Source: Akkermansia sp. (GTDB taxonomy: Bacteria; Verrucomicrobiota; Verrucomicrobiia; Verrucomicrobiales; Akkermansiaceae). Taken from it: a stretch of DNA of 64,000 nt. A program made the position numbers and the translations under genes. The notes under the pieces were generated by a model, which made no database searches, was not told where the DNA came from, and saw nothing but the letters and a program-made list of their open reading frames with translations. The stretch lies in assembly GCA_045635265.1 (NCBI GenBank), contig JAZRBU010000028.1, forward strand, positions 29,019 through 93,018, written 5' to 3'. How positions within the stretch are numbered: position 1 is the first letter of the stretch; the number at the start of each line of letters is the position of its first letter. Positions 14,088 to 46,214 of this stretch are shown one piece after another.

Positions 14088-14140
14088 ATTCTATCATGTA
14101 ATGAGCCGGAATCAATAGCAAATTTCGTTTCCATTTCGCG

Positions 14141-14881
14141 TCAGAACACCTTGGGATTTTTCGTGATGTTGCGGAAACGGCGCAGGAACGTGGGGGGGAG
14201 TGTGTGCCAGGGCTGGGAGAGAATAATGGCCGTATATGAGTCTTGAGCACCGGAGGTGATGATTTCCAGGCGGCCCGGACGGTAGCGCAGGCGGATGAGG
14301 CCGTCCTCATCACGATAGGTAAGGCGGATGTGTCCAGAGGCTGCGGCGCGGCCGCCGGCATCTCGGCAGATGCGGCGCAGGTGTTCCTCTGCGTCTGCCA
14401 GGGTAGTACCGGGACGGGCAAGTGCTACGGCAAGCTCATACTGCCTGCTGATGAGATTGCCCATGGCGACCGGGCGCGGAGGGTTGGCATGCACACGGCC
14501 GATGACGGCAGGAACGGGGCGGGCGGTCAGGGTAACATTGACGGTAAACTGTTCCCCCCCTCGGCGCAGGCGCAGCTGCAGAACATCACCTGCTCCGCTG
14601 TGCCGCATGCACAGGAAGAGCCCCTCACGACTGTGCACTTTCTGTCCGTTGACGCTCAGCAACACGTCCCCACTGCGAATATCTGCGCGGGCGGCGGGGC
14701 TCTCCGGAGCTACTGCAGAGACTCGCAGGCAATGGGTCTGCGTATCTGCGGCTGTACGGATGCCCAGGAAAACATCGCTCGTAATCATTCTCTGCGTCGC
14801 GGGCACAGTAAGGCTGTTGCCTGCGCCGCCGGGAAGCGCCGCGAGAAGGAACATGCTCAGAATGATTAAGAGACGATTCAT
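14141..14881 (-). CDS. Secreted PDZ-domain protein
   Basis: Signal peptide MNRLLIILSMFLLAALPGGAG. PDZ-like segment VAPESPAARADIRSGDVLLSVNGQKV. Confidence 0.65.
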   Translation of the reverse strand: MNRLLIILSMFLLAALPGGAGNSLTVPATQRMITSDVFLGIRTAADTQTHCLRVSAVAPESPAARADIRSGDVLLSVNGQKVHSREGLFLCMRHSGAGDVLQLRLRRGGEQFTVNVTLTARPVPAVIGRVHANPPRPVAMGNLISRQYELAVALARPGTTLADAEEHLRRICRDAGGRAAASGHIRLTYRDEDGLIRLRYRPGRLEIITSGAQDSYTAIILSQPWHTLPPTFLRRFRNITKNPKVF

Positions 14882-26417: not shown

Positions 26418-27548
26418 TTACTCCTTCGCCAGCTCACCCCACACACGCTTCTGATAACGATACGACTTAGCCGTCAGGCAACCTCCGCTCAGGAACATGA
26501 GCCCCCAGCACGTCAGAAACAGAGGAACAGCGAAAAGATTGACGAGACTCAGCGCATGAGCCTCCTCCGGAGCATCCGCAAAATAGAGCAGCACGGTTTC
26601 CCTGCCTTTGGGATTATTCTGAAAAAGCTCGGCGTCCTTTACCTCCCGGCAATAGCGCCGACCATCCGCAACGGTATATTCGTAAATGGGGCGATATGCG
26701 TCCCCGTCCTTCTCCGCACGGACCACTTTCCCAACTGTTCGCTCGGCTTTCACAAAATACTCCAGAGGCTCTTCCGCCAGCGAAATCCCGGCATACAGGG
26801 CAAGCGTTCCGCCAACTATCATTACCACGGAAATTACACCCCAACATTTCTCCGGCGGTTGCACACTGGAGCGTGGGTCTGCCCAACTCAGGCTGCGGGA
26901 ATGCTCCGCATCCATCCGTGGAGGGAAAGCTGCTGCCGTCGTCTGCAGAGCCTCCAGCACAGACCCCATATCGGCCAAATTAAGGAAACCCAATCGAGGA
27001 CGCCTACCAAATGCATCCGGAGCGGTGTTCTCGTATGCCAGCACAATATCACCGCGGCCTCCTTTCCGCTCCACAATCTCCACCACCATATTAGATGCCA
27101 ACGGATATAGCGTCATCTCCCAACCCGGCAGCGGCAGCCTGCTCTTCGCCACCACAGCATGCCGATTCGTCACGGCATAAAATGTTCGCCGACGATTCCC
27201 CACCGTCAGCACAGGTATCAACAAAGTCAGACCGACCAAGAGCATGCAAAAGGAGGCAATCAGGTAGCCCACGGCATCCACCTCCTGGCTACCCAGGGAC
27301 ACCAGTATGAAGATTCCGGAAAACATAGACATGACCAACGTCAGCAGAATCCAGTGCTGCAGCGCTTTCTTCTCCGGAATACACCGCGGGCGAACATACC
27401 AACGCACGGCCTCACCGTCCGACAATACAGACCTCAGAGCTACCTTTTCTCCCTCTCCTAAGACTTGTGTTGACATGGTAGATTCCTTGTTTTTCTGCCT
27501 CAATTCTCTCATCGGAATCAGAGCATCATCTCCGGACTCCGCACTCAT
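26418..27548 (-). CDS. Membrane protein, paralogue family member 2, with DUF3592-like C-terminal module
   Basis: N-terminal half parallels 11222..12064 (RRRTFYAVTNRHAVVAK, GRGDIVL). C-terminal TM-beta-TM unit VGKVVRAEKDGDAYRPIYEYTVADGRRY. The start codon is uncertain because there are several in-frame Met codons. Confidence 0.6.
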   Translation of the reverse strand: MSAESGDDALIPMRELRQKNKESTMSTQVLGEGEKVALRSVLSDGEAVRWYVRPRCIPEKKALQHWILLTLVMSMFSGIFILVSLGSQEVDAVGYLIASFCMLLVGLTLLIPVLTVGNRRRTFYAVTNRHAVVAKSRLPLPGWEMTLYPLASNMVVEIVERKGGRGDIVLAYENTAPDAFGRRPRLGFLNLADMGSVLEALQTTAAAFPPRMDAEHSRSLSWADPRSSVQPPEKCWGVISVVMIVGGTLALYAGISLAEEPLEYFVKAERTVGKVVRAEKDGDAYRPIYEYTVADGRRYCREVKDAELFQNNPKGRETVLLYFADAPEEAHALSLVNLFAVPLFLTCWGLMFLSGGCLTAKSYRYQKRVWGELAKE

Positions 27549-27931
27549 CCGCCCCCATTCTATGCCCTTTCAGACCGCCTTGCAAGCCAAAATCTCACTA
27601 CTCAATTTAGAAGCCTCCACCACTTCACTCCCGGATAAAAACTGACTTTTTGCCGGCAATCAACATTTCTCCCGAAACACCTTTTTCCACACCTCATTTT
27701 TCTATCAATAATTCACCCGCTGCAGAAATTAAATTTCCGGGCAGACACATTCCATCCTCCTCATATCATTCCAAACTCCGGCCACCGGATTCGATGTTAG
27801 TCTACCCCCAATCAATTCTTCTTATCATATCAGCATTTCTGAATTACGCACTGTTAATTATTATTGTCCATTTTCCTATTTTTTCATATTTTTACTCCCA
27901 TCTTTTTATTTTGTTTCAATAACTGCTACGT

Positions 27932-27946
27932 TTTCTAAACTTATAA
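27932..27946 (+). repeat. 15-nt direct repeat copy 1 (tttctaaacttataa)
   Basis: An exact copy recurs at 28238-28252, 306 bp away, within the ORF-poor AT-rich spacer. Confidence 0.8.
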
Positions 27947-28237
27947 AACACCCACTCCCTTTCGGCATCAAAACAAGGCTTATTTTTACCTCATGTCAAA
28001 ATCCCACACCACCGCAGGTTCATTTTTCACCCAACATCTCAGCACCATTCTGCAGGAACGCCCAATTGCTCATTTTAAACTCTCAAACTAACGTCTCTGA
28101 GCATCTCTACATACTTGCTTTCCCTTAAGCGTCTCTTTTCACTAAGAATTTCTTCAGACTTGTAATTTATTCTATTTATTGCATATAGATTAAACTCTGC
28201 AATATGCCCGTTTGTTTAATTTTCGCACTTGTTATCG

Positions 28238-28252
28238 TTTCTAAACTTATAA
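28238..28252 (+). repeat. 15-nt direct repeat copy 2 (tttctaaacttataa)
   Basis: Exact match to 27932-27946. Confidence 0.8.
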
Positions 28253-28769
28253 TCAACAGTCTCCATTTCAATCTGCACACAGAGAAAAGATGACGCCTTC
28301 GTGAAGGATTACCCACCGCTCCAAAAGCCATCTTTTCGGGCTTCAAAACCACAAAAACGAGACTTTCTCAAGCCAAATTACCCCCGCAAAACACCGTATT
28401 TTCTCCTCATCAAAAAGAAGATTCCACTCAAAAATAATGAAAATATCGCAAAATTCGGATTTTTATCATGAATATCATCTTTTTTAGCATTAAATTGATA
28501 TTCTTGAGCCTATTTTTTCTTTTGTTCATCACATTTCCTCTATCGGCAGAGTTAGATAGTTTTGCACTCTGAGAAATTGCTACGACGTTCGCTCTTTCAT
28601 CCCTATCATTAGTGGCAAAGCAGCGTTCTTCTTTAGCGACACACACACAGCGCATTTATCCTCATATAATGCACAAAACAGCCGCTAAACAGCGACAATT
28701 CGCCATGATTTCCAGGCTCGCACTAGAAGCACTGAATATCAGCCATTTACAATAAAACGCCGCAAGAAG

Positions 28770-28829
28770 CGCGAGAATCGCATATTCCGTACAAAAGTAC
28801 GGGCGCGTTTCAAATTTTCGATTCTCGCG
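28770..28829 (-). terminator. Nested hairpin downstream of the 249-aa gene
   Basis: An 11-bp perfect inverted repeat, cgcgagaatcg (28770-28780) with cgattctcgcg (28819-28829), encloses an inner hairpin ccgtac-aaaa-gtacgg (28787-28802). Confidence 0.5.
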
Positions 28830-28834
28830 GCACT

Positions 28835-29613: not shown

Positions 29614-30171
29614 TTACAACTCACGAAAGAACTTTTCCACGGGCTCCATGGGAATGTCAGCAGGCATATTGCCGATATCCTGCACCTCGCCGGTCTCAAA
29701 ATTGAAATAATGAAGGGCACCGGATTGCTGGCGCAGGTAGAGCTCCGTGGGGTACTTCTTCCAGCCGGCAGTACCTCCCTGAAACCCGATACAGGTATAC
29801 CACGGCTCATAGTACCCCTGCCCATCATCCCCGGGCAGCCCCTCGGTCGGGCTTACTTGGACACTATAAAAAAGCGTATCGTCGATATGATATGTACGCA
29901 TATACCAGCGGCGAGTCCCATCACAGTATAGCGTTTTTGTGCTGAAAAAGGAGCTGATGATACTCCCCAGAACAACCAGACAAATCACCCCAAAACACCC
30001 CAGAGAACAGCCATGAGAGCACCCGCTCTTCTTCCCCTGCAGGCGCATTTTTATCAACGCTCGTCCTATGATGACCAGCACCACTACTGCCGCAACAGGC
30101 ATCACATAAGGAGCAATTTCGTACCACATATTATCAAGCACAAAAGGTTTGTTCCGACGCTGTTTCCTCAC
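29614..30171 (-). CDS. Hypothetical 2-TM membrane protein
   Basis: The GTG at 30171 overlaps the ATPase stop (GTGA). An alternative ATG lies at 30129. Two hydrophobic helices are followed by an aromatic-rich soluble part. Confidence 0.5.
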   Translation of the reverse strand: MRKQRRNKPFVLDNMWYEIAPYVMPVAAVVVLVIIGRALIKMRLQGKKSGCSHGCSLGCFGVICLVVLGSIISSFFSTKTLYCDGTRRWYMRTYHIDDTLFYSVQVSPTEGLPGDDGQGYYEPWYTCIGFQGGTAGWKKYPTELYLRQQSGALHYFNFETGEVQDIGNMPADIPMEPVEKFFREL

Positions 30172-31400
30172 ATAGCGGATATCGGGAATGCCTTATGCCC
30201 TTTACCGATGGAGAACATCTCCCTTGCGGTACAGAGAACGACACCCGGCTGCATTTCGGCATTACCGGTGGGGATGCCGCCCACCGCTTTTAAATCAGCC
30301 GATGTCGGACTGCTGCTCCGCTTGACTTCCATGGGATAGATTTTCCCGCTGTGTTCAAGCAGGAAGTCCACTTCGGCTCCATTGCTGTCCCGATAGTAGC
30401 TCAGCCGAGAACGCAGCCCGCGGCTGCCCAGAGCCCGATATAATTGCCCGAACACCCAGGTTTCCAGGATAGCTCCACTCATGGCTCCGCTTTGCAAAGA
30501 GGCCGGAGTAGGCCAGCTGCAAAGCCACGCACAAAGGCCGGTATCCATGAAATATAGCTTGGGGGATTTGCTCAAGCGCTTAATCGTATTGATTGAATAT
30601 GGCTGCAGCAGAGTGACGATACCACTTGCTTCCAGAATACTTACCCAGCTTTTTGCCGTCTTGGGAGAAATCCCGGCATCCTTTGCCAAATCAGCATACA
30701 CCAGTTGCTGCCCGGTTCGCGCGGCGGCAGATTGCATGAGCACCATAAACGCATTTTTGTCACTTACCTGAGTCAATGCCTGAACATCTCTCTCCAGATA
30801 CGTTTGCAGATAGGAATCAAAATATTGGTCTACATTTCGATTGAGATCCCGGTGCAGTGCCGGATAGCCCCCGCGCCAGATGCGTGCATAGAGTTCATTG
30901 ATATCGCACGAACGACGCGCCGGCATCAATTCCGTCAGACGCTCGAGCGTGGGAAAAAAGTCGGCCTCGTTGCTTGTACGGGTTATTTCGCGCTGGGAGA
31001 GAGTGCAAAGCTCCAGAATCCCCACTCGCCCGGCCAGGCTTTCACTCACCCCCTTCATCATGTGAAACCGCTGGGAACCGGTCAGCCAATACATGCCCGG
31101 GCGGTCTTCCTTATCCACCATCCACTTGATAGCTCTCAACAGTTCCGGTGCATACTGCACCTCATCGATACAGAGCGGTGTCCCCTTCTCTTCAAGATAC
31201 CCGATAGGATCATTTTTGGCCTGTCGTAGCTCTCGAAAATCATCGAGATTAACATAATTCATATCCCCGGGCATGATTTGCTTCAACATCGTCGATTTGC
31301 CCACCTGCCGAGCACCGGTTATCAGCACGCATGGAAAACTGCGGCTCATTTCCTCAACCGTAGAGAGTGCTTTTCTGGGAATGTATTCGTTCTCGTTCAT
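30168..31400 (-). CDS. AAA ATPase with DUF4143-type C-terminal domain
   Basis: Walker A ITGARQVGKST and Walker B LCIDEVQY. About 410 aa, with the usual AAA_14 + DUF4143 layout (YFMDTGL..., EVDFLLE...). Confidence 0.75.
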   Translation of the reverse strand: MNENEYIPRKALSTVEEMSRSFPCVLITGARQVGKSTMLKQIMPGDMNYVNLDDFRELRQAKNDPIGYLEEKGTPLCIDEVQYAPELLRAIKWMVDKEDRPGMYWLTGSQRFHMMKGVSESLAGRVGILELCTLSQREITRTSNEADFFPTLERLTELMPARRSCDINELYARIWRGGYPALHRDLNRNVDQYFDSYLQTYLERDVQALTQVSDKNAFMVLMQSAAARTGQQLVYADLAKDAGISPKTAKSWVSILEASGIVTLLQPYSINTIKRLSKSPKLYFMDTGLCAWLCSWPTPASLQSGAMSGAILETWVFGQLYRALGSRGLRSRLSYYRDSNGAEVDFLLEHSGKIYPMEVKRSSSPTSADLKAVGGIPTGNAEMQPGVVLCTAREMFSIGKGHKAFPISAM

Positions 31401-31460
31401 CTTCCTGTCCCATTCTGCCCCCGCCCGCAGAAATTGTCAAGCAAAATGAACTCCGCTTCT

Positions 31461-31493
31461 ATGCAAAACAGGAATCGGATTCCCGTTTTGCAT
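31461..31493. promoter_or_regulatory. 33-bp palindromic operator-like site 1 upstream of the DUF4143 ATPase gene
   Basis: atgcaaaacaggaatc-g-gattcccgttttgcat, with arms matching 15/16. Confidence 0.6.
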
Positions 31494-31522
31494 AAAATTT
31501 TACCAAATTGACCCTCTTTTTT

Positions 31523-31555
31523 ATGTAATAATGGAATTAGATTCCCGTTTTGCAT
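31523..31555. promoter_or_regulatory. 33-bp operator-like site 2 (degenerate left arm, identical right arm)
   Basis: atgtaataatggaatt-a-gattcccgttttgcat. The 21-nt stretch gattcccgttttgcataaaat is identical to site 1. Centres are 62 bp apart. Confidence 0.55.
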
Positions 31556-31572
31556 AAAATAAACCAAGTCAT

Positions 31573-32559
31573 TCAGCTTAAATTCCAGTACGCCTTGGCC
31601 TGCTTCACCTGTGGCAGATTCAGGTAGCGGCTCAGGAGCAAATTGGCACTGCGGTGCCCCATCTCCAACTGCAGCGCTCCCAAATTCTGAAAATACGCCG
31701 CATGATAGCTGGCAAAAGTGTGGCGACACACATCCGGCACCCACTGCCCGGGTGCAAATCCGGCTGCGCGTCTCAGCCGCCTCCAGCGGTTTTCCCAGTT
31801 ACCGGGAATGCGCAGCGGCACCCCGCGCAGCTTCCCTTTATTACGCAGCGGCACGGCACGCCCGCCGCCGGTCTTACTGCTACTCGCCGGAACAATCACC
31901 CTGCCCTGCTGCGGTTGAATATGCGTAGTCTCCAACCGCGCCACCTCCTGCGGTCGCAGCCCGCAATACAGCAACAAATGCAGCGATAACTGCATGTCGC
32001 GATGCTGCGGCATCTTGGCGGCAGCCTCCAAGCGCTTGATTTCTTCCGCGCCAAGAGGCTTGATTTCCTGCTCCCTCACCCGGCGGCATTCTATGCGTGA
32101 CACGGGATTTTCGCTACACCACTCCTGCTTTTGCCCATAAGAAAAAATGCTGTGCAGAATCGCCCTGCCCTTGTTATAGCTATGCACACTTCCACCGAAA
32201 GCCGTCTGCAACAGCTCCCGACACTCACGGCTAGACATCGCCCGCAGCGGTCGCTCCGCTACACCTTCCACCCGCAGCATTCGCCGCACAAAATGCCGCA
32301 AATCCCGCAGCGTCACCGCCCTCCGCCCCGCCCGAGCCTGCACACTCGCCCAAGCTGCCGTCTCAAAAGAAACCGTATGCTCCTCTGCCCTGATTGCCGC
32401 CACCCCCGCATGCAACACCCGCCGCATCAACCGCATCATTTCTCCCCTCTCCATCCCGGCACACCTCTCCCCCAGCTCCTCCGCCGCCTCCATCACTAGG
32501 CGGGATATATCGTTGAGATTCAGTGGTAACTCCTTAATTATTTCTTTTGCTGTTTTCAT
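31573..32559 (-). CDS. Tyrosine recombinase/integrase
   Basis: Trimmed to MKTAKEII (ATG at 32559). Catalytic pattern: R in GLRPQEVARL, CRHTFASY, and MGHRSANLLLSRYL (H...Y). Confidence 0.85.
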   Translation of the reverse strand: MKTAKEIIKELPLNLNDISRLVMEAAEELGERCAGMERGEMMRLMRRVLHAGVAAIRAEEHTVSFETAAWASVQARAGRRAVTLRDLRHFVRRMLRVEGVAERPLRAMSSRECRELLQTAFGGSVHSYNKGRAILHSIFSYGQKQEWCSENPVSRIECRRVREQEIKPLGAEEIKRLEAAAKMPQHRDMQLSLHLLLYCGLRPQEVARLETTHIQPQQGRVIVPASSSKTGGGRAVPLRNKGKLRGVPLRIPGNWENRWRRLRRAAGFAPGQWVPDVCRHTFASYHAAYFQNLGALQLEMGHRSANLLLSRYLNLPQVKQAKAYWNLS

Positions 32560-32576
32560 AGTTTTGGTAGGTGGTT

Positions 32577-32593
32577 CAGCATTTTTAATGCTG
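32577..32593. promoter_or_regulatory. 17-nt palindrome CAGCATT-N3-AATGCTG in the integrase leader
   Basis: cagcatttttaatgctg. Read on the minus strand it is identical to 32734-32750. It ends 17 nt from the integrase ATG. Confidence 0.6.
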
Positions 32594-32733
32594 GTCAAGC
32601 AGAAAAATCTGTTTTGCACTCTTAAATGCTGAAAAAAACACAATACTATGTGCACAGTGCTGGTTCAAGATAAATCAAGTCGATTGCACTTCATGCCCGT
32701 TTTATAAACAAGTCATAAATGTACAGGTTCATA

Positions 32734-32750
32734 CAGCATTAAAAATGCTG
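32734..32750. promoter_or_regulatory. 17-nt palindrome CAGCATT-N3-AATGCTG in the RM-gene leader
   Basis: cagcattaaaaatgctg, 14 nt upstream of the GTG start at 32765. An extra half-site aatgctg lies at 32625-32631. Confidence 0.6.
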
Positions 32751-32764
32751 ATAAATAGAGCCAT

Positions 32765-35700
32765 GTGAAATCCACTCTCCGTACCCTACTTGATTCCATA
32801 CGCGAAGCTACCCAACAAACATCTGAAGCTGATAAAGGGCACCGTTTTGAGGTACTCATGAAGCGGTATCTGCTGACTGACCCCACCTATAAGGCTCGAT
32901 TCTCAGATGTCTGGCTCTGGAATGAATGGCCCTATGCCAAAGGTCACGATGTGGGTATTGATATCGTGGCCAAAGAGGCTGATTCTGACCGTTACGTAGC
33001 CATACAGTGCAAATTTTATGAGCCTACACACCTGATGAGACTCCCTGATGTGCAGACTTTCTTCGCGGCTCTCAATGCCACCATCAATACTGAGTACAGC
33101 AAAAAGGACTCATTCGTACAAGGCATCATCATTGCCACGACTGACCATTGGAATGTAGTTCTGCTCAATAAATTGTATCAACAACACATTCCCTGCCAAC
33201 ACATCGGACTCTCTGACCTGGAAGAAGCCGCCGTGGACTGGTCTACCATTCTCAAAGGACAAGGTGAAATCGCAAAGTATCAGCCCCGCCCCCATCAGCG
33301 TGAAGCCATTGATGCCGTATTGGAGGGGTTCATGACTACTGACCGTGGTAAACTCATCATGGCCTGCGGTACCGGTAAGACTTTCACGGCTCTCCGACTG
33401 ATGGAAGAATTCACAGGTGGTAAGGGTTGTGTCCTGTTTCTTGCTCCGAGCATTGCCCTCGTTGCCCAAAGTCTGCGTGAATGGATGGCTCAAACAACTT
33501 GCAAAATCCATCCCATTGCCGTGTGTTCTGATGGTGAAGCATCCTCCATTGATGACTTGGTGGATTTGTCTGCTCGTGACCTCCCTGCGAGAGCTACCAC
33601 AGACCCCACGACTATTGCTCAACTGTATGCCAGATTCAAGGATAGCCATCTGACTGTTATTTTCTCCACATATCAGTCCATAGAGAAATTACATGAGGCT
33701 CAAAAGATCGGTGCATTGCCGGAATTTGACCTCTGCATCTGTGATGAAGCCCACCGCACGACAGGTGTTTCCCTCTATGATGAGAAGAAGGGTAAGCACC
33801 ATGAATCTCACTTCACCAAAATTCACAAGCAGGACTACATCGCATGCCGTAAGCGAGTCTACATGACTGCCACGCCGAAGATTTATGCCGAATCTGCGCG
33901 ACAAAAAGCAAAGGATACCAATGCAGAACTGGCTTCAATGAATGACCGTTCCTACTTTGGGGATGAATACTTCCGTCTGCCCTTCTCCCGTGCTGTTCGC
34001 GAGGGTCTGCTCACCGATTATAAAGTGCTGGTGCTCTGCGTTGATGAGGATTACGTAAAGGACATCATGGGGGAGCAACTCCAACAGGATGAAACAGGCG
34101 CCATTGAACTGGATGATGCCGTGCGACTTGTTGGCTGTTATAACGGACTGCGTAAAAAAGTCTTGTTGCCCGCCAATGCTGCTGCAGGTAATGCTGATTC
34201 CTACGACCCATCTCTCCCCGAACTACTTTCTCACGATGAGGACTTCCTTACCTCTGACCCGGGGCCGATGAAACGTGCGGTATCCTTTGCCAATGTCATC
34301 AAGGCTTCCAAGAATTATACCGAGATGTGGGGTAAGGTTGTGAATGCCATCCGCAAGGATGAAGAGGACGATTCTTCTTTCCTTGATAGCGAGATGCAGC
34401 ATGTGGATGGCAACATGGACATGGGAGAACGCGCGGCTCTGCTCTCGTGGCTCAAAGGTAATGCAGGAACAAACGCCAATCATGGTGTACCCGAATGTCG
34501 TATTCTCTCCAATGCTCGCTGCTTGTCAGAAGGTGTGGATGTTCCGTCTCTGGATGCGGTCATGTTCCTTGCACCTCGTAAATCGCAGGTGGATGTGGTG
34601 CAGTCCGTGGGGCGAGTGATGCGAATTGCTCAGGGTAAGAAGTTCGGTTACATCATTCTGCCCATCGGTATATCTCCCAGGGATAAGCCCGAAGAAGTGC
34701 TGGATAAGGATGAGAAGTATCGTGTGGTTTGGGATGTTCTGCAAGCTCTCCGCTCACACGACGACCGCTTCAACGCTGAAATCAACTCCATTGAACTCAA
34801 CAAGGGCCGAGGTAAACGTATCGTAGTAGGTGGTGTTACCGGGAAAAAGGGCAAGAAGCGCAACCCGAAAAAGAAGGATGGTTATGATGAATACGAGGAG
34901 GATGTACTCGTTGCCAAAGAAGGCGATGACAAACAGCTTTCCTTTGATTTTGACTTTGAGAAAGAATTACCCGCATGGACGGATGGTATCCTCGTCCGCA
35001 CCGTTCAGAAGTGCGGCGACAGGCGTTATTGGGAGGATTGGGCAAAGAACATCGCCAAGATTGCAGAAAAGCAGACAGCGGCTATCAACACACTTCTGGA
35101 TAAGGGTATTGGTTTGGCGGAGTTCCAACTCTTCCTGTCAGGTCTGCGAGAAAACACGAACCCTGCCATTACCGAGGCTGATGCCATTGAAATGTTGGCA
35201 CAGCAATTCATCTCCCGACCTGTGTTCAATGCGCTCTTTGAGAAGTATCAGTTCGCAGAGAACAATCCTGTCTCCAAGACCATGAACGACATGCTGGACA
35301 TCGTGCAGCAGAACACCGATGCCAATGACTTGCGAGAACTACGCCGCTTCTATGATTCAGTGAAAGACCGAGCCCAGAGCATTGATAACGCTGCCGGGCG
35401 TCAGCAGGTGGTCGTAGAACTTTACGACAAGTTCTTCAAGCAAGCATTCCCCAAGTTGGCCGAGAAACTGGGTATCGTTTACACCCCCATCCCTGTGGTA
35501 GACTTCATCGTGCATTCCGTCCACAAGGTGCTGCAACAGGAATTCGGGGTCAAAGATGGTCTGGGGGCCCGTGGTGTAAAGATTCTTGACCCCTTTACAG
35601 GAACAGGCACATTCATCGTCCGCGCCATCCAGAGCGGCCTTATCAAACGCAGCCAACTGCCTTACAAGTATCGTAACGAACTCTTTGCCTGTGAAATTGT

Positions 35701-37660
35701 GCTGCTTGCCTACTACATCGCGTGTGTAAACATTGAGGTGGCTTATCATGGTGTCATGAAGCAGGAGGAATACGAACCGTTCAATGGTATCTGCTTGACC
35801 GATACTTTCCGCATGGATGGTAACAGTGCTGCTGATAAGGACTTGTTCGCAGCCTTTGAGGATAACGGCGAGCGTGTGAAGAACCTCTGCAAGCAGGACA
35901 TCCGAGTGATTATCGGTAATCCTCCTTATTCTGCCAAACAAGAGTCTGCAAACGATAACAATCAGAATGAAGCCTATCCATACTTGGATGAGCGTATCGC
36001 TAATACATACGCTAAGAATGCCAAGGCTACTAACAAGAACAGTCTCTACGACTCATACATCCGTGCATTCCGATGGGCATCCGACCGCATTACCGATGAT
36101 GGTATCCTCGCCTTTGTAACCAATGGTGCATACATTGATAACAACGCCATGACTGGCTTCCGTCAGTCCCTCATGGACGAGTTTGATTCCATCTACTGCT
36201 TCAATCTCCGAGGAAACGCTCGCACATCAGGTGTTCAGCGTCAGAAGGAAAAGGGTAATGTGTTCGGTGAGGGGTCTCGCACACCGATTGCCATTATCAT
36301 CCTCGTCAAGAAGAAGAACCGACCTGCTGGTCAGCTGGCTACGCTTCATTATCACGACATCGGTGATTATCTCTCTCGTGAGCAGAAACTTGAAATCATC
36401 CAGGGGTTTGGTAACTACTCTGGTATCCCTTGGCAGCCACTCATCCCTGATGAACACGGAGATTGGCTCAATCACCGCACATCTGGTTATGATAAGTTCC
36501 TGTCCATCGGTGATAAAGCCACCAAGGGTAAGCCTGATACCAAGGCTCTCTTTACCTTGTTCTCCAATGGGGTAAAGACGAACCGTGACACATGGTGTTA
36601 TAACTATTCTCGCGTTGCGTTGGAAAGCAACATGCGCCGTAGTATTGAGTTCTTCAATACTCAATCAGGACTTGCAGAATTTGACTACGACCCCACCAAA
36701 TTCTCATGGGGAAGACAGCAGAAAAAGGATGCAGAGCGTGGTAAGCAATACTGTTTCTCTGCTTCATCCATCGTCCCTGCTGTTTATCGTCCGTTCTGTA
36801 AGCGTCATGGATACATCCATAAAGACATGAACGACATGCTTTATCAGATACCTAAACTGTTCCCTACACCACAGCATAAGAACTTGGTAATTCAACTAAC
36901 AGGTAATGGTTCTAGCAAACCGTTCTCTTGTCTTATTAGTGCGATAACGCCAGATTTACAGGTAATGTTCAATGGACAGTGCTTCCCCCTCTACTGGTAT
37001 GAGGAACGGAATGCCGATGCGCCGATGCTTGACCTTGGTATGGAAGCCGATGCAGGTGATTACATCCGTCACGATGGCATCTCAAACTTCGGACTCAAAC
37101 AGTTCCGAACAGCCTACGGAGACCCCAAGATTGGTAAGGAGGACATCTTCTATTATGTGTATGGGCTGTTGCATAGCACAGAATACCGCACACGCTTTGA
37201 GAACGACCTGAAAAAGGAACTTCCCCGCATCCCCTTTGCCAAGGATTTCTGGGCATTCTCCAAGGCCGGCCGTAAGTTGGCAGAACTCCATCTGAACTAT
37301 GAGACGATAGAACCTTGGCCAATCAAGGAATACTCCCATGGTAACTTCCGAGTGACCAAGATGCGTTTCCCCAAGAAAGGAATTCGTCACACCATCATCT
37401 ACAATGACTCATGTACGCTGAGTGAGATTCCCGAAGAGGCATACGAATACATCGTGAATGGCAAGTCCGCCATCGAATGGGTCATGGAGCGCTATGCCGT
37501 CACCATAGATAAAGATAGTGGTATCACCAATGACCCGAATGACTGGTGTGACGAACAAGGCAATCCCCGCTACATTATTGACCTCGTGAAACGCATCGTC
37601 CGTGTCAGCATGGAAACCATGGAGATAGTAAAAACCTTGCCCCCGCTGGAGGAGATGTGA
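32765..37660 (+). CDS. Type ISP restriction-modification enzyme (Mrr-like nuclease + SF2 DEAH translocase + N6-adenine methyltransferase + TRD), LlaGI/LlaBIII-like
   Basis: GTG start. Nuclease motif GIDIVAK...AIQCKFY (D...QxK). Helicase motifs: I ACGTGKT (about 33367), II DEAH (33742-33753), VI QSVGRVMR. MTase motifs: I LDPFTGTGTF, IV NPPY (35918-35929). 1631 aa as a single polypeptide. Confidence 0.85.
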   Translation: MKSTLRTLLDSIREATQQTSEADKGHRFEVLMKRYLLTDPTYKARFSDVWLWNEWPYAKGHDVGIDIVAKEADSDRYVAIQCKFYEPTHLMRLPDVQTFFAALNATINTEYSKKDSFVQGIIIATTDHWNVVLLNKLYQQHIPCQHIGLSDLEEAAVDWSTILKGQGEIAKYQPRPHQREAIDAVLEGFMTTDRGKLIMACGTGKTFTALRLMEEFTGGKGCVLFLAPSIALVAQSLREWMAQTTCKIHPIAVCSDGEASSIDDLVDLSARDLPARATTDPTTIAQLYARFKDSHLTVIFSTYQSIEKLHEAQKIGALPEFDLCICDEAHRTTGVSLYDEKKGKHHESHFTKIHKQDYIACRKRVYMTATPKIYAESARQKAKDTNAELASMNDRSYFGDEYFRLPFSRAVREGLLTDYKVLVLCVDEDYVKDIMGEQLQQDETGAIELDDAVRLVGCYNGLRKKVLLPANAAAGNADSYDPSLPELLSHDEDFLTSDPGPMKRAVSFANVIKASKNYTEMWGKVVNAIRKDEEDDSSFLDSEMQHVDGNMDMGERAALLSWLKGNAGTNANHGVPECRILSNARCLSEGVDVPSLDAVMFLAPRKSQVDVVQSVGRVMRIAQGKKFGYIILPIGISPRDKPEEVLDKDEKYRVVWDVLQALRSHDDRFNAEINSIELNKGRGKRIVVGGVTGKKGKKRNPKKKDGYDEYEEDVLVAKEGDDKQLSFDFDFEKELPAWTDGILVRTVQKCGDRRYWEDWAKNIAKIAEKQTAAINTLLDKGIGLAEFQLFLSGLRENTNPAITEADAIEMLAQQFISRPVFNALFEKYQFAENNPVSKTMNDMLDIVQQNTDANDLRELRRFYDSVKDRAQSIDNAAGRQQVVVELYDKFFKQAFPKLAEKLGIVYTPIPVVDFIVHSVHKVLQQEFGVKDGLGARGVKILDPFTGTGTFIVRAIQSGLIKRSQLPYKYRNELFACEIVLLAYYIACVNIEVAYHGVMKQEEYEPFNGICLTDTFRMDGNSAADKDLFAAFEDNGERVKNLCKQDIRVIIGNPPYSAKQESANDNNQNEAYPYLDERIANTYAKNAKATNKNSLYDSYIRAFRWASDRITDDGILAFVTNGAYIDNNAMTGFRQSLMDEFDSIYCFNLRGNARTSGVQRQKEKGNVFGEGSRTPIAIIILVKKKNRPAGQLATLHYHDIGDYLSREQKLEIIQGFGNYSGIPWQPLIPDEHGDWLNHRTSGYDKFLSIGDKATKGKPDTKALFTLFSNGVKTNRDTWCYNYSRVALESNMRRSIEFFNTQSGLAEFDYDPTKFSWGRQQKKDAERGKQYCFSASSIVPAVYRPFCKRHGYIHKDMNDMLYQIPKLFPTPQHKNLVIQLTGNGSSKPFSCLISAITPDLQVMFNGQCFPLYWYEERNADAPMLDLGMEADAGDYIRHDGISNFGLKQFRTAYGDPKIGKEDIFYYVYGLLHSTEYRTRFENDLKKELPRIPFAKDFWAFSKAGRKLAELHLNYETIEPWPIKEYSHGNFRVTKMRFPKKGIRHTIIYNDSCTLSEIPEEAYEYIVNGKSAIEWVMERYAVTIDKDSGITNDPNDWCDEQGNPRYIIDLVKRIVRVSMETMEIVKTLPPLEEM

Positions 37661-37672
37661 TATAGTATCTAT

Positions 37673-38491
37673 ATGGGAGAAAAGAAGTATACGAGATTAT
37701 CACGCCAAGAAATCGAGTTGGCGCTCGCAAATACGCAAATGAAAGTAGGCGAATTAGCCCAGCTAACTCTGAGCAGTATTCTTCAGCATCCCGATTTTCC
37801 CTCTGAATACTTAGAAAAGTTCAGATGTAAAAATTTTAGCAAAAATACTTTCGGTCTTTCCAGAGCACTATTAATCAGAAGAAGAGAATGGGCCAAAACT
37901 CCTCAATTACCTTACTATGCGGAATATCTGGAATGTAATGGCAAATATTACTGTCTTTGTTCAGAATGGACAGAACGACAGCTACCAAAATTAAAAAATT
38001 GGGTTAATCGTCACAAAATCGATTTGAGTGAACGCCGGAACCTTTGGCAACTTGAAGAAGCACATCCTCAACAGAAAAACCGATGGGCTGTAGTTGAATT
38101 AGAACAATTGTGCCAGGATAAAATCATTCCCTGTGGCAGAATCAAACGAGGAAAAGGAAATGATAGATTAATAAAGATTTCAAAAACCGATTGGCTGGGA
38201 ATAGTGGATAAAGAACCAAATCGCATCGTCTTCCGTTTCAGAAAGAATAATATATATAGGCTATACGCTGTTTCTACGAGTTTGATTCGCGAAACAATAA
38301 ATGCTTTCCCGCATAGATTTTCAAAAACAACAGCTAGCGAATACTGGAGTTTTTCATTAAATATTTTATCTGGCAAACTTAGTAATACTCAAGGTTCACC
38401 GAGAACAGCATTTGCTACATGTTATGTATACATTGCGAGACCGACAGCGTCTTCCAAAATTCAGTCTCCACAGAAAAATATTAACACCTGA
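37673..38491 (+). CDS. Hypothetical protein (272 aa), no recognisable domain
   Basis: ATG 12 nt after the RM stop, on the same strand. Very AT-rich. Coding-like composition with no internal stops. Confidence 0.6.
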   Translation: MGEKKYTRLSRQEIELALANTQMKVGELAQLTLSSILQHPDFPSEYLEKFRCKNFSKNTFGLSRALLIRRREWAKTPQLPYYAEYLECNGKYYCLCSEWTERQLPKLKNWVNRHKIDLSERRNLWQLEEAHPQQKNRWAVVELEQLCQDKIIPCGRIKRGKGNDRLIKISKTDWLGIVDKEPNRIVFRFRKNNIYRLYAVSTSLIRETINAFPHRFSKTTASEYWSFSLNILSGKLSNTQGSPRTAFATCYVYIARPTASSKIQSPQKNINT

Positions 38492-38538
38492 TTTCTTATC
38501 CGTCAAAAAGCAAACTTTAAAAAAACTACATTTTTGAT

Positions 38539-40587
38539 ATGAACTACCTCTCAAAAGTAGAAGCAAAGAAAGCCGTCTTATCTGATGGCAAAAACATTTG
38601 CAACATGTCTTTCAGCCTCCGTGATGACGACGAATTAGCATGGTTGGCAATTGAACACGGAGCGTCTATCAATGATGTCTCTTACAGACTACAAAATGAC
38701 CTTGCCTTTTCTCTTAAATATGCGAGATATTGCGCCAAATTGGGAATAGTTGAACAAAATTTCTTCAGAGCATTATTTATTGCACAACATTCTCTTGAAT
38801 TCCTTAACACTTACTGTTCACTATTTGCAAATGAGCCGGAGTTCATTATGTACTTGAAGCTTGCTCATGGAAAGAATTATAGATCTCCCATAGTCTCACT
38901 CAACAAATATGAAGGAGAAGAGCTGGCTCACATCATCAATCAATATAAGCGCAACCTGATAAAAGAATTGAAAGAGGAATATTATTCCCATTCTTATCAG
39001 GAAATGCATTTAAAAACAGGTTACAATGCAGCAAATGAACTGCGTAATTTCGCCCTATTGTCACGTGGTGACAACCTTCCGTTCTGCGAGATTCCTGAGC
39101 TGATAAAAAAACAAATTGAACGCTTAGATACACAAGTTGATTGTTTGAGAGCAACTAGCAGGAAAGGCTCATTTCCTGAACGCGTCATAGATGCCATTCT
39201 TAAGCAACTCAATGTTGCATTTGACCGAGAAGTTGTTTTCCAGTGGAGTCGCCCTAATAATGCAAACAAATTAAATGGTTACAAGCGTTATGACTTCTAT
39301 CTTCCTGAATACAATGCAATAATAGAAGTGCATGGAGCTCAACATTATTCGGCAGGGTTCGAAACATTCGGCGGGCGTTCTCTGAAGGAAGAACAGGCCA
39401 ACGATCACTTAAAACAAGCATTAGCTAAACAAAATGGCATTACCAATTATATCGTCATTAATGCCGCAGTTTCCAACTTTTATTATATTAAAGAATCAGT
39501 CATTTCGAATAAAGATTTCTCTACTTGCTTCGATTTATCAAAATTAAACTGGCATGAGATAAAAATAGCAACTATAGAGGAACCAGACATAAGCTTACCC
39601 TTATATCAATTACAAAAATCTTTTTATGAAGAACTGAGTTCTCTATTCAATAACACCTTCTCTGTTATCCCAATCCAACAACCATCTAAAGATTTTGGTG
39701 AAGGGTGTTCGGAAGAGACTTCCAAACTGACAATATGGAAAAAAAGCATCAAAGTCAGTATGCGAGGTCTGTATCCTCATGAAATCATATTGCTAGAGCG
39801 AGCCAAGCGTTCATCGGCACCGGAAATGACATGTCCAGTTGATGCTGACAATGTTATTGGTAAGTGGTACTATGAATATGGAATCTCAAATGTGCGTCCC
39901 ATAGTTGAACGATTGGCTGATTCAGGATTTATACAAGTAGGAGGACTACGATATACACTTCAACGCACAGAAGCTAATAAACTCAAACAGTTTGCTTCCA
40001 AACAAGGCATAAAGGCTCATGGCAAGAAAGAAGAAATTATCGCTCGAATTCTCGAAAACATTCCCGAACACATTATCAAAGAGACCTTCACTAAACAGTA
40101 CTATGAGCTAACGGAATTAGGCAAACAAGAGCTGAATGAAAACAGCTACATTTTTGATGCCATTCAAGTTCCGATTCTGGACGCAATGACTCGAATCAAA
40201 TTAGCGCAGCAACATCCCGATCAGGACATCTATGAAGTCATACAGAGACACCTCAAAGGTCATGAACCCTCTACCGGCTGCACAAATACAGACTCCGCAC
40301 AAAGTGCTACAAACTACGATGAGGGTGATAAATACCAGATCATTTGTACCCTGGACAAAAAGACTTGCGAGCGATGTGGTTCGATGGATTTGAAAGTTTT
40401 TGACTATGCACAAAAGGAAATAGGTGTTACTTACCCACCATTCCACGATGGTTGCCGCTGCTGTGCAGTACCGTATTTTGACGGAGACGAACATAATGAG
40501 CGTGCAGCACGAAACAGAGACGGCAAAACCATCTTTGTGGAAAATATGAATTGGCAAGAATGGAGAAAAGTATATGGCAGCAACTAA
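38539..40587 (+). CDS. Multidomain hypothetical protein: DUF4116-like N-terminal repeats + DUF559/Vsr-like PD-(D/E)xK core + SAP motif + C-terminal phage MuF-like Cys-rich domain
   Basis: RYDFYLPEYNAIIEVHGAQHY...EQANDHLKQALAKQNGI (nuclease-like, about 39241-39500). LKQFASKQGIKAHGKKEEIIARIL (SAP-like). LDKKTCERCGSMDLKVF...YPPFHDGCRCCAVPY (MuF/SPP1 gp7-like, about 40351-40480). Confidence 0.6.
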   Translation: MNYLSKVEAKKAVLSDGKNICNMSFSLRDDDELAWLAIEHGASINDVSYRLQNDLAFSLKYARYCAKLGIVEQNFFRALFIAQHSLEFLNTYCSLFANEPEFIMYLKLAHGKNYRSPIVSLNKYEGEELAHIINQYKRNLIKELKEEYYSHSYQEMHLKTGYNAANELRNFALLSRGDNLPFCEIPELIKKQIERLDTQVDCLRATSRKGSFPERVIDAILKQLNVAFDREVVFQWSRPNNANKLNGYKRYDFYLPEYNAIIEVHGAQHYSAGFETFGGRSLKEEQANDHLKQALAKQNGITNYIVINAAVSNFYYIKESVISNKDFSTCFDLSKLNWHEIKIATIEEPDISLPLYQLQKSFYEELSSLFNNTFSVIPIQQPSKDFGEGCSEETSKLTIWKKSIKVSMRGLYPHEIILLERAKRSSAPEMTCPVDADNVIGKWYYEYGISNVRPIVERLADSGFIQVGGLRYTLQRTEANKLKQFASKQGIKAHGKKEEIIARILENIPEHIIKETFTKQYYELTELGKQELNENSYIFDAIQVPILDAMTRIKLAQQHPDQDIYEVIQRHLKGHEPSTGCTNTDSAQSATNYDEGDKYQIICTLDKKTCERCGSMDLKVFDYAQKEIGVTYPPFHDGCRCCAVPYFDGDEHNERAARNRDGKTIFVENMNWQEWRKVYGSN

Positions 40588-40617
40588 AGCCTACTAATCA
40601 GTTCCAGCGCATGTCTA

Positions 40618-40680
40618 TTGTCTCATATCTGCTAAAAAAGCAAGAGATTTTACGCAGATATGAGACAAAATCTTTTTTTC
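40618..40680 (+). terminator. Intrinsic terminator after the 682-aa gene
   Basis: A 15-bp stem, ttgtctcatatctgc (40618-40632) with gcagatatgagacaa (40655-40669), followed by aatcttttttt. Confidence 0.8.
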
Positions 40681-40769
40681 TGCACCTTTCTCCATGTGGA
40701 CACATTCTGCTGTCCGAAACAGACATTCGTTTCTGCGGCAAACAAGAGTTTCCTCTCTCATTTCCTTGG

Positions 40770-40814
40770 AAAGAAATGACACAACGCCCCGCGCTTCGGG
40801 ATGAAGGCGGGGCG
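40770..40814 (-). terminator. Hairpin terminator after groEL
   Basis: cgccccgc (40785-40792) pairs with gcggggcg (40807-40814), 55 nt past the groEL stop. The minus-strand tail is ttgtgtcatttctt. Confidence 0.55.
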
Positions 40815-40868
40815 TGAATTGTTTTATATTACAGGGTAGTCAGGCAGTGTGACTTTTTGGGGGGCTGC

Positions 40869-45133: not shown

Positions 45134-45257
45134 ACATCGACCGTCCGATTACAAATCGGGTGCATAAAGTATCATCTAAAACGTGTTGAATCAAGTTGCA
45201 GGCTTGAAGAGAAGCCGAAAATATGCTAGAATACTGCCACAGCATACAAGTTACATT

Positions 45258-46214
45258 ATGGCAACACAGCTTGAGCAATTGAAAAAGTACACGACCGTCG
45301 TGGCCGATACGGGTGATTTCCGTCAAATGGAAGAATTCTCTCCGCAGGATGCCACAACCAATCCTTCTCTGATTCTGGCCGCAGCCGCCAAGCCGGAGTA
45401 CCGCCCGATTCTGGACGCGGTGGTGGCGGATTTCAAGGCCACGGTAAGCAACCCTGCCGAGCGAGTGGGCGAGCTGATGGATCGCGTAATTGTCGCATTC
45501 GGTCTGGAGATTCTCAAGCGCGTGCCCGGTCGAGTATCCAGTGAGGTGGATGCCCGTCTTTCCTTTGATACCGAGGGCACCGTGACCAAGGCCCGCGAAA
45601 TCATGGCACTGTATGAAGCCGCCGGGATTCCGCGCGAGCGCGTGCTGATTAAGATAGCCTCCACCTGGGAAGGCATACAGGCAGCCCGCCAGCTGGAGCA
45701 AGAGGGCATTCACTGCAACCTGACCCTGCTGTTCAGCCTGGTGCAGGCCGTTGCCTGTGCAGAGGCAGGCGTGCGCCTCATCTCCCCCTTCGTGGGCCGC
45801 ATTCTGGACTGGTACAAGAGCAGCACCGGTCAGGATTACACCTCTGAGACCGACCCCGGCGTCATCTCCGTGCGCACCATTTACAATTACTACAAGAAGT
45901 TCGGCTACCCGGTGCAGATTATGGGTGCTTCCTTCCGCAACACGGGTGAGATTCTGGCTCTGGCCGGCTGCGACCTGCTGACCATTTCCCCGAACCTGCT
46001 GGCTGAGCTGGCCGGCAGCGAAGAGCCGGTGACACCGGTACTGACCCCGGAGGCTGCTCAGGCCAGCGATATCGAGCGTATCCCCGCAGACGAAAAGAGC
46101 TTCCGATTCCTCTTCAACGAGGACGCCATGGCCACGGAAAAAACGGCTGAAGGCATCCGTAAATTCTCTGCAGACATCCGCAAACTGGAGGCCCTGCTGG
46201 CTTCCATGCTCTGA
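45258..46214 (+). CDS. tal: Transaldolase (type B)
   Basis: Trimmed to the ATG at 45258 ([21 protein letters not shown]). Active-site region KIASTWEGI. Confidence 0.93.

Follow-up and report, generated by a model that had tools for sequence, protein, structure and literature searches.

Two open reading frames (ORFs), ORF-A with 272 and ORF-B with 682 amino acid residues, lie behind the gene encoding a Type ISP restriction-modification (RM) enzyme in a stretch of DNA from Akkermansia sp. (GenBank assembly GCA_045635265.1, contig JAZRBU010000028.1, positions 29,019 to 93,018). The whole analysed stretch of 64,000 nucleotides (nt) is called the window, and positions are counted from its first letter. 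Both ORFs are real genes, horizontally acquired, in an integrase-bearing Akkermansia island of about 11 kb. They are two independent cargo genes and do not form a two-component system. The wider explanation, in which both were acquired at the 3' end of the Type ISP unit and play the roles proposed below, is the one we prefer, with a confidence slightly better than even. The ORF-A family is clearly linked to defence by its place behind operons of the Type ISP, BREX-1 and Type III-like kinds, and ORF-A is a good candidate member of an as yet undescribed family of defence accessories. The reading of ORF-B as a portal-directed nuclease is put forward with low confidence. The gene structures, the domain content, the genomic contexts and the separability of the two genes were observed directly, whereas all mechanisms are inferred. 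The principal features are:

32765..37660, + strand: Type ISP RM enzyme, 1631 residues, single polypeptide (Pfam, PADLOC)
37673..38491, + strand: ORF-A, 272 residues, ATG start, belonging to a family without annotation that sits at the end of RM and BREX operons (homologues P0122, P0123, P0136-P0143, P0287, P0288)
38539..40587, + strand: ORF-B, 682 residues, ATG start, multidomain nuclease-like protein (Pfam, PHROG, family alignment)
40618..40680, + strand: intrinsic-terminator-like hairpin and U-run (folding energy, shuffle z-score)

The gene cluster

An earlier note on this DNA had described the 272- and 682-residue ORFs behind the Type ISP gene, on the same strand and separated by gaps of 12 nt (RM gene to ORF-A) and 47 nt (ORF-A to ORF-B), and the exact coordinates confirm this. 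Its claim that a strong terminator appears only after the second gene also holds. The terminator scan gave no + strand terminator-like site in either gap, while 3' of ORF-B a long, nearly perfect hairpin at 40618-40668 is followed by a U-run (-24.1 kcal/mol, z = -4.84 against shuffles). The RM gene, ORF-A and ORF-B are probably co-transcribed. The guanine-plus-cytosine (GC) content is 0.379 in ORF-A and 0.393 in ORF-B, as compared with 0.490 in the RM gene, 0.542 in the whole window and 0.627 in groEL directly downstream; at third codon positions (GC3) it is 0.315 in ORF-A and 0.366 in ORF-B. The AT-richness noted earlier is thus real and places both genes well under the GC of the RM gene, though at 38-39% GC and not at about 33%. 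The low GC and the integrase gene at 31573-32655 (- strand) agree with the description of the two genes as foreign cargo behind an RM gene in an integrase island. Both ORFs are regarded as real genes because their homologues, down to about 30% identity, keep conserved motifs.

The ORF-A family at the end of restriction operons

Operons of the Type ISP, BREX-1 and Type III-like kinds can each end with an A-like gene. In locus L003 it stands behind a Type ISP gene 82% identical to that of the window, and in L034 behind another Type ISP gene. In L031 it follows a complete BREX type 1 operon (BrxC, PglX, PglZ, BrxL), and in L032 a series of SNF2, DUF4391, N6_N4 methyltransferase (Mod) and Type III Res genes. 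In L005 and L004 the A-like genes follow a DUF2971 gene or small unknown genes. ORF-A has no family match in Pfam, NCBIfam, PADLOC or PHROGs, even at permissive thresholds, in keeping with the earlier statement that it lacks a recognisable domain. The family has no relative among PDB sequences, and its weak Pfam matches at E<=5 show nothing consistent. It was not found in 2.9 million viral contigs of IMG/VR, in GenBank phages or in PLSDB plasmids, and for this reason appears to be cellular. Metagenome and viral scans for the family also found none.

The protein consists of two parts with very different degrees of conservation:

37724..38026, + strand: conserved N-terminal domain of ORF-A (N-domain), residues ~18-118, ~95 residues (profile search, AlphaFold2 model)
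38027..38488, + strand: variable, beta-rich C-terminal part of ORF-A, motif WxFxLxxxxGxL (<=28% identity, or undetectable, between members with N-domains 48-66% identical; low-confidence model)

The Type ISP proteins of four lineages (window, L008, L003 and L034) have 79-90% mutual identity. The A-like proteins behind these four genes are only 32-39% identical overall, with the exception of the window and L008, where the value is 98.5%. When all five A-like contexts are compared with ORF-A of the window, the identity is 48-66% in the N-domains, whereas in the C-terminal parts it does not exceed 28% or no similarity is detected. The DNA similarity between the Type ISP loci ends exactly at the end of the RM gene. 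The conserved RM gene, the diverged A-like proteins and this boundary of the DNA match together argue for fast divergence, or for cassette replacement at a fixed trailing slot. The C-terminal region of the family contains one or two copies of the motif WxFxLxxxxGxLY.

The N-terminal domain of ORF-A

The N-domain is characterized by the motifs ILQHPDFP, YSKxxFGLSxxLL, (R)YY and YYCLCSxW. In an exhaustive profile search it was detected in 503 representative proteins at E<=1e-3, and NCBIfam has no name for any of the domain-carrying proteins. It is C-terminal in 103 of 160 instances, approximately stand-alone in 29 and N-terminal in 18, the last being mostly members of the ORF-A family; seven proteins have two copies. 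A search for hidden copies of the domain gave none, either in the RM and BREX proteins or in the rest of the window. The fusion partners recognised by Pfam are mostly of restriction or effector type (HSDR_N/HSDR_N_2, PDDEXK_3, GmrSD_N/C, NucS_C, YhcG_C, HNH, T5orf172/MUG113 and TIR_2, with one fusion carrying TIR), GIY-YIG-like nucleases being among them, and Ank, Sel1 and LRR repeats also occur.

The commonest carrier is a family of about 330 residues with a PD-(D/E)xK-like N-terminus followed by the A-type domain, which has 483 relatives in metagenome contigs. Its neighbours (61 proteins in 18 loci) include several ResIII/DEAD, Mrr_cat, WYL, NA-iREase1, RE_SacI, Vsr and GIY-YIG proteins as well as serine recombinases, each family occurring in 1-4 of the 61 proteins as a raw count, without background comparison. 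In about 10 of 19 loci (L078-L150) the carrier is followed by a same-strand ORF of 265-307 residues, four of which have a GIY-YIG match. An example is:

L078 6001-7029 and 7041-7898, same strand: carrier and following ORF (locus comparison)

The carrier and the ORF behind it may be an undescribed two-gene restriction-like unit. On a RefSeq plasmid of Priestia megaterium the carrier, annotated "hypothetical protein", is located between a dcm/Sau3AI pair and genes of the MutH/Sau3AI family and SNF2.

The AlphaFold2 model of the N-domain, built from a domain alignment of 56 sequences, has a predicted local distance difference test (pLDDT) score of 90.7 and a predicted template modelling (pTM) score of 0.82. 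It consists of four helices, a strand, a helix, a beta-hairpin and a long helix. Foldseek gave nothing significant for this model, either in the PDB (best E 0.83, TM-score <=0.37) or in BFVD (best E 0.34). With no family match and no fold match, the domain is undescribed in the searched libraries and structurally unmatched. A likeness to SeqA-C (TM-score 0.35-0.37, E 4.1) was not significant and was not used as evidence.

In the preferred explanation, members of the ORF-A family fill the last slot of translocating RM-type operons with N6-type adenine methyltransferases, namely Type ISP, BREX-1 and Type III-like. The N-domain may be a nucleic-acid or target-recognition module, DNA binding being suggested by the fusions and neighbourhoods, and ORF-A could act as a non-catalytic accessory, sensor or adaptor beside the upstream restriction machine. 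The fast-diverging, beta-rich C-terminal module, which lacks conserved catalytic residues, might be the part on which an arms race exerts selection. The three kinds of upstream system (Type ISP, BREX-1, Type III) all recognise asymmetric sites and methylate one strand. Asymmetric sites with one methylated strand have been described for Type III and BREX (PMC12707154). This property common to the three systems may hint at what the ORF-A domain reads.

ORF-B and its domains

ORF-B is composed of a DUF4116-like region, a nuclease-like domain, a helical region, a weak SAP match and a MuF domain at the C-terminus. The earlier description of the protein as nuclease-like stands, with a nuclease-like domain recognised by PHROG profiles, while the phage MuF domain and the SAP match had been overlooked. 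The segments are located as follows:

38539..39135, + strand: DUF4116-like N-terminal region (Pfam DUF4116, 17.6 bits, below cut-off)
39136..39573, + strand: nuclease-like domain, residues ~200-345 (PHROG matches)
39976..40059, + strand: possible SAP (DNA-binding) motif, residues 480-507 (sub-threshold Pfam)
40291..40578, + strand: MuF / SPP1 gp7-type minor head domain, residues 585-680, CxxC...HxxCxC (Pfam, NCBIfam, PHROG)

For many homologues of ORF-B the DUF4116 family PF13475 is a precomputed annotation, and for several the SAP family PF02037. The nuclease-like domain matches phrog_4538 (E 1e-29) and phrog_9084, annotated 'homing endonuclease' (E 1.6e-18), and also phrog_559 and phrog_7140. 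Residues D252, E263, H265, Q268, H269, N288, D289 and K292 are invariant in the family. The domain was found in 35 viral contigs, several of them longer than 100 kb. Among PDB sequences ORF-B and its family have weak SAP matches only, the family profile meeting the SAP-containing entry 2rno (E 0.0012) and the SAP region of FAN1 (E 0.02). The C-terminal domain matches Phage_Mu_F (PF04233; 30.7 bits against the Pfam gathering threshold, GA, of 29.6), TIGR01641 (E 8e-9) and phrog_115, 'minor head protein' (E 6e-23). In tblastn the last 123 residues matched 210 phage records at identities of up to 48%, the best matches being head-morphogenesis or minor head proteins of Brevibacillus, Clostridium and Clostridioides phages (Firmicutes). 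A negative PADLOC result had been expected for a novel module, and neither ORF matches a model, ORF-A having no hit at all and ORF-B only WH_III-A at E 0.077.

According to the family alignment, the first ~560 residues of ORF-B are common to Clostridia proteins without MuF, several of which end in hydrophobic tails that appear, by eye, to span the membrane. MuF is present in the Akkermansia clade only, where one member (P0003) has TM2 fused at its C-terminus. ORF-B is intact and 54-60% conserved across Akkermansia lineages, and its closest named genome match is an Akkermansia metagenome-assembled genome. Relatives with NUMOD or zinc-ribbon DNA-binding modules also exist. In three of four Clostridia loci the homologue has a conserved upstream partner (L015 8984-9964, L017 500-1774, L018 4841-6400). 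These partners share a C-terminal domain of about 120 residues, and ORF-A has no homology to them. The L018 partner has TM2, which together with the TM2 fused in P0003 gives a hint of a membrane link for the ORF-B family.

In L006/L007 the ORF-B homologue adjoins a cytochrome c gene, and in L014 it follows an ORF of 354 residues that is aminomethyltransferase-like by eye alone. The homologues are AT-rich (GC 0.38-0.41) and stand between unrelated genes with GC of 0.56-0.60, some of them recognisably housekeeping. The scanned neighbours include no phage structural and no recognised defence families. Full-length ORF-B is absent from the 2.9 million IMG/VR contigs, where only its nuclease-like domain is present.

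The core of ORF-B (DUF4116-like, nuclease-like, helical region, weak SAP) is common to Clostridia, with MuF added in the Akkermansia clade only. The protein could be a DNA-binding nuclease led by its captured MuF domain to phage portals or procapsids, where it would cut or block phage DNA. The nuclease activity, the portal binding and the anti-phage effect of ORF-B are all predictions from sequence. A bolder version of these roles, which we consider rather improbable, sees ORF-A as an RM/BREX-coupled 'guard' whose new nucleic-acid-reading domain, common to hundreds of uncharacterised restriction-type nucleases, would tie it to the DNA or complex on which the one-strand methylating enzymes (Type ISP, BREX, Type III) act, and whose hypervariable C-terminus would sense phage counter-defence, and ORF-B as a 'Trojan-horse' nuclease docking to portals or procapsids and destroying packaged genomes.

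Two smaller observations concern the vicinity of ORF-B. An ORF of 88 residues at 40551-40817 (+ strand) lies partly over the end of ORF-B and also covers the terminator hairpin; in L008 it is called as a gene of 80 residues. It is probably spurious, the alternative being an immunity-like small gene. A DUF3592 membrane protein (weak match, 21.4 bits) is encoded near ORF-B at 26418-27548 (- strand), and DUF3592 is also found near the Ruminococcus homologue of ORF-B (L019 7733-8269), which may be a coincidence.

Alternative explanations

ORF-A and ORF-B might together be a new anti-phage system of two genes, in which a sensor or partner and a nuclease effector were acquired as a single cassette behind the RM gene; the earlier note had taken the pair for a candidate defence or accessory module. 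The common strand, the 47-nt gap, the like GC of the two genes, the one terminator after ORF-B and the lack of a PADLOC match are consistent with such a system. In addition, the A-B stretch is 98.5% identical between island copies as compared with 91% for the RM part, and in another family the proteins with the A-type domain often have a nuclease (GIY-YIG) gene behind them. However, A and B are adjacent only in contigs with the same island (ORF-A 98.5% and ORF-B 99.4% identical, same integrase and RM gene). No B is found beside six diverged A-like genes (L003, L034, L031, L032, L004, L005), and no A in at least seven diverged B-like contexts (L006/L007, L014 and the Clostridia loci L015 and L017-L019). 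When both proteins were compared by tblastn with all loci, the partner was missing in every diverged case, and the upstream partner of the Clostridia homologues of ORF-B is a different, unrelated one. Since the pair is unseen beyond island copies that are at least 98% identical, the idea of a two-gene module fails the test of co-occurrence, and this rival, very improbable in our view, is largely refuted. A toxin-antitoxin reading of the pair was rejected for the same lack of co-occurrence. It could also be argued, with equally little probability, that the Type ISP enzyme, ORF-A and ORF-B make one three-gene unit here, the accessories extending or backing up restriction, and that the parts separate elsewhere. 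The short gaps free of terminator-like sites, the one terminator and the stability of the RM-A-B arrangement in five contigs would fit this. A Type ISP enzyme, however, works as one polypeptide (Chand et al. 2015, cited in PMC12707154), GC (0.49, 0.38 and 0.39) and history differ between the three parts, and the trio has no independent recurrence.

Two further alternatives concern ORF-B in the first place. It may be what is left of a prophage packaging module, either a polymorphic toxin of the MuF type or a minor head protein, with no host function, ORF-A being unrelated. The MuF domain is genuine, 96% of bacterial muf genes are located in prophages or their remnants, and more than half of the MuF toxins have nuclease domains (Jamet et al. 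2017, PMC5576092). We nevertheless find this origin hardly probable. The domain order is reversed, with the nuclease N-terminal and MuF C-terminal; the first ~560 residues are common to non-phage proteins of Clostridia; the full-length protein is missing from the viral contigs; and the ORF is intact and conserved across Akkermansia lineages. Neither a portal, a terminase nor another structural gene is present among the scanned neighbours, in the window or in the homologue loci. The genes scanned next to ORF-B (RM, integrase, groEL, groES, dnaK) include no portal or terminase, the rest of the window being unscanned, and ORF-B as part of an intact prophage was rejected, as no structural genes are among these scanned neighbours. 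The earlier note had itself raised the possibility of ordinary prophage structural genes, from which the absence of ORF-A from the phage sets and of full-length ORF-B from IMG/VR leads away. An unlikely alternative, to which we still give some weight, takes ORF-B as a selfish free-standing gene of homing-endonuclease type and ORF-A as a small controller-like regulator of the RM or BREX operon. The ORF-B domain indeed matches PHROGs annotated as homing, intron-encoded or HNH endonucleases, NUMOD or zinc-ribbon modules are found in its relatives, relatives are also present in large phage contigs, its homologues are solitary, AT-rich genes between unrelated genes of higher GC, and ORF-A is always in an operon with RM-type genes. 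With 682 residues and DUF4116, SAP, MuF or transmembrane extensions, however, ORF-B would be an atypical homing endonuclease. No helix-turn-helix (HTH) or other regulator fold is detected in ORF-A, where HTH families gave no match at E<=5 and HTH folds no significant match; the recognised fusion partners of the N-domain are mostly nucleases and not regulators; and a hypervariable C-terminus is unexpected in a housekeeping regulator. RM controller genes, moreover, usually precede and do not trail the genes that they control. ORF-A as an HTH controller (C) protein was rejected, having no HTH, a downstream position and a family length of 272-477 residues.

Several points also weigh against the preferred explanation of two independent cargo genes with the proposed roles. 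The A family has only about five independent contexts, three of them Type ISP loci that may go back to a single ancestral arrangement. What the N-domain does is deduced only from fusions and neighbourhoods, and about 85% of the fusion partners have no annotation. The AlphaFold2 model of full-length ORF-A is poor (pLDDT 59.9, from a 3-sequence alignment) and its Foldseek matches are meaningless. The 12- and 47-nt spacing and the shared terminator are compatible with a local coupling of the RM gene, ORF-A and ORF-B. For ORF-B, the comparison of the nuclease-like domain with Vsr by hhalign gave E 0.066 and a probability of <1%, and the domain profile has no match among PDB sequences, for which reasons the Vsr-like assignment stays tentative. 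The SAP match (E 4.7e-4, 20.2 bits) is below the Pfam cut-off of 23.9 bits, and only the C-terminal half of the Pfam MuF model is kept (positions 52-111 of 112). Finally, the homologues of ORF-B elsewhere lie outside defence islands, which weakens the case for a defence role. Of the uncharacterised defence context claimed earlier, the position of the ORF-A family behind RM and BREX operons holds; a defence role of ORF-B would be no more than a candidate one. Homologues of the two genes were not seen to co-occur in any of the diverged genomes examined.

Other features of the island and the window

The upstream gene codes for a complete Type ISP enzyme. All five domains are present, in the order Mrr_cat_2, ResIII, ISP_coupler, N6_Mtase and Type_ISP_C (E 1e-112), as expected of a single polypeptide made up of an Mrr-like nuclease, an SF2 translocase, a coupler, an N6-adenine methyltransferase and a specificity domain at the C-terminus, and the gene matches the PADLOC model REase_MTase_IIG with 1996 bits. 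The remaining features are:

36588..36983, + strand: hypervariable segment within the Type ISP gene (DNA comparison with L008, L003, L034)
29614..40805, strand not applicable: ~11.2-kb island common to other Akkermansia contigs (blastn of L008 against the window)
30168..31400, - strand: AAA_14 / DUF4143 ATPase gene (Pfam E 1e-28 and 7e-45)
31573..32655, - strand: tyrosine recombinase, Phage_integrase (Pfam E 1.2e-11)

The segment at 36588-36983 (~400 bp) has no DNA match to L008, L003 or L034, although the surrounding gene is 80-98% identical. It is a putative target-recognition region that has possibly been swapped.

The island contains an ORF of 185 residues that is membrane-like, the AAA_14/DUF4143 ATPase, the tyrosine integrase, the Type ISP RM gene, ORF-A and ORF-B. 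In blastn, L008 is 91% identical to the window over 29614-36588 and 98.5% over 36983-40805, and the match ends at both island edges. The GC of the island is below that of both flanks, and groEL, groES and dnaK are located downstream of the island genes. The PurA protein encoded in the window belongs to a 90%-identity cluster with named members from Akkermansia sp. or Akkermansiaceae, in agreement with an Akkermansia host. Convincing att-like direct repeats flanking the island were not found. Rfam gave no match over the whole window, the tRNA scan found no tRNA, and megablast of the A-B region against E. coli genomes gave no match.

An imperfect direct repeat of 57 nt (77% identity, spacing 62 nt) is located at 31442-31560 between the AAA_14/DUF4143 and integrase genes. 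Positions 27550-28830, to the left in the low-GC region and not part of the segment common with L008, are AT-rich (GC 0.37-0.46) and have no substantial ORF. In L008 a HipA/HTH toxin-antitoxin pair (12755-14333) follows ORF-B where the window has groEL, and the left flank of L009 matches 45195-46126 of the window in inverted orientation. This suggests that the island sits in differing arrangements across strains. A second AT-rich and probably foreign gene at 12069-14087 (- strand; local GC 0.46-0.48) codes for a protein of 672 residues, the N-terminus of which resembles the 'RecG-related' protein of PDB entry 2kyy (E 4e-4).

Implications

Neither ORF-A nor ORF-B is known to the present defence catalogues, and the association of ORF-A with RM and BREX is clear. 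Of greatest value as a lead is the ORF-A family with its widespread, unannotated and structurally unmatched domain of about 95 residues, which is absent from the four family libraries searched and for which a structural relative could not be detected. This domain gives a handle for the annotation of many "hypothetical proteins" in defence islands and offers a test of how translocating N6-type RM and BREX systems recruit accessory factors. ORF-B is a cellular nuclease-like protein with a captured phage head-protein domain and, if functional, suggests immunity or sabotage aimed at capsid assembly. To our knowledge, no defence strategy aimed at virion assembly has been described. The host genus Akkermansia is a gut commensal of therapeutic interest, and we know of little experimental work on its phage defences.

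Comparison with known systems

ORF-B may be compared with the MuF toxins and SPP1 gp7: over its final ~95 residues it shows homology to the MuF core, CxxC...HxxCxC included. Like many MuF toxins, ORF-B joins MuF and a nuclease-type domain in one polypeptide. In the toxins, however, the N-terminal region holds MuF and the C-terminus the toxin, and muf genes typically follow directly on the portal gene (PMC5576092). In ORF-B the order is reversed, the nuclease-like domain occupying residues ~200-345 of the 682 and MuF residues 585-680. The gene lies outside a prophage, with no portal or terminase among the scanned neighbours; most of the protein consists of a cellular core of the Clostridia type that lacks MuF; and no immunity-like gene is evident. 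The reversed order and the absence of a prophage context place ORF-B outside the MuF-toxin family as defined. The portal binds full-length SPP1 gp7 strongly and in this way targets it to the interior of the procapsid (PMC6316719).

The nuclease-like domain of ORF-B may be compared with PD-(D/E)xK enzymes of the Vsr/DUF559 type. The segment RYDFY...IIEVHGxQHY lines up with (K/R)PD(I/F)V...F(V/T)(N/H)GCFWH of Vsr, at the non-significant hhalign score given above. Unlike the genes of Vsr or homing-endonuclease type, ORF-B is far larger and has DUF4116, SAP and MuF modules.

RM and BREX loci contain accessory or embedded genes, for example BrxU/GmrSD or PARIS within BREX loci. Like these, genes of the ORF-A family are found within RM and BREX operons or close them, and the family shares a domain with GmrSD-type and other restriction nucleases. 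In sequence and fold, however, ORF-A is unrelated to these accessories; a nuclease, ATPase or HTH domain is not recognisable in it, and PADLOC gives no match. Modular Type IV and Type II restriction enzymes combine a nuclease with a DNA reader such as SRA, EVE or a winged helix. The N-domain differs from the known readers in that its fold is unmatched, and in ORF-A it is N-terminal, with no nuclease in the same protein. As in these enzymes, however, the N-domain is typically a C-terminal appendage, in some proteins together with PD-(D/E)xK, HNH or GmrSD and in restriction-rich neighbourhoods, and such a placement beside nucleases is the architecture expected of a DNA-recognition module.

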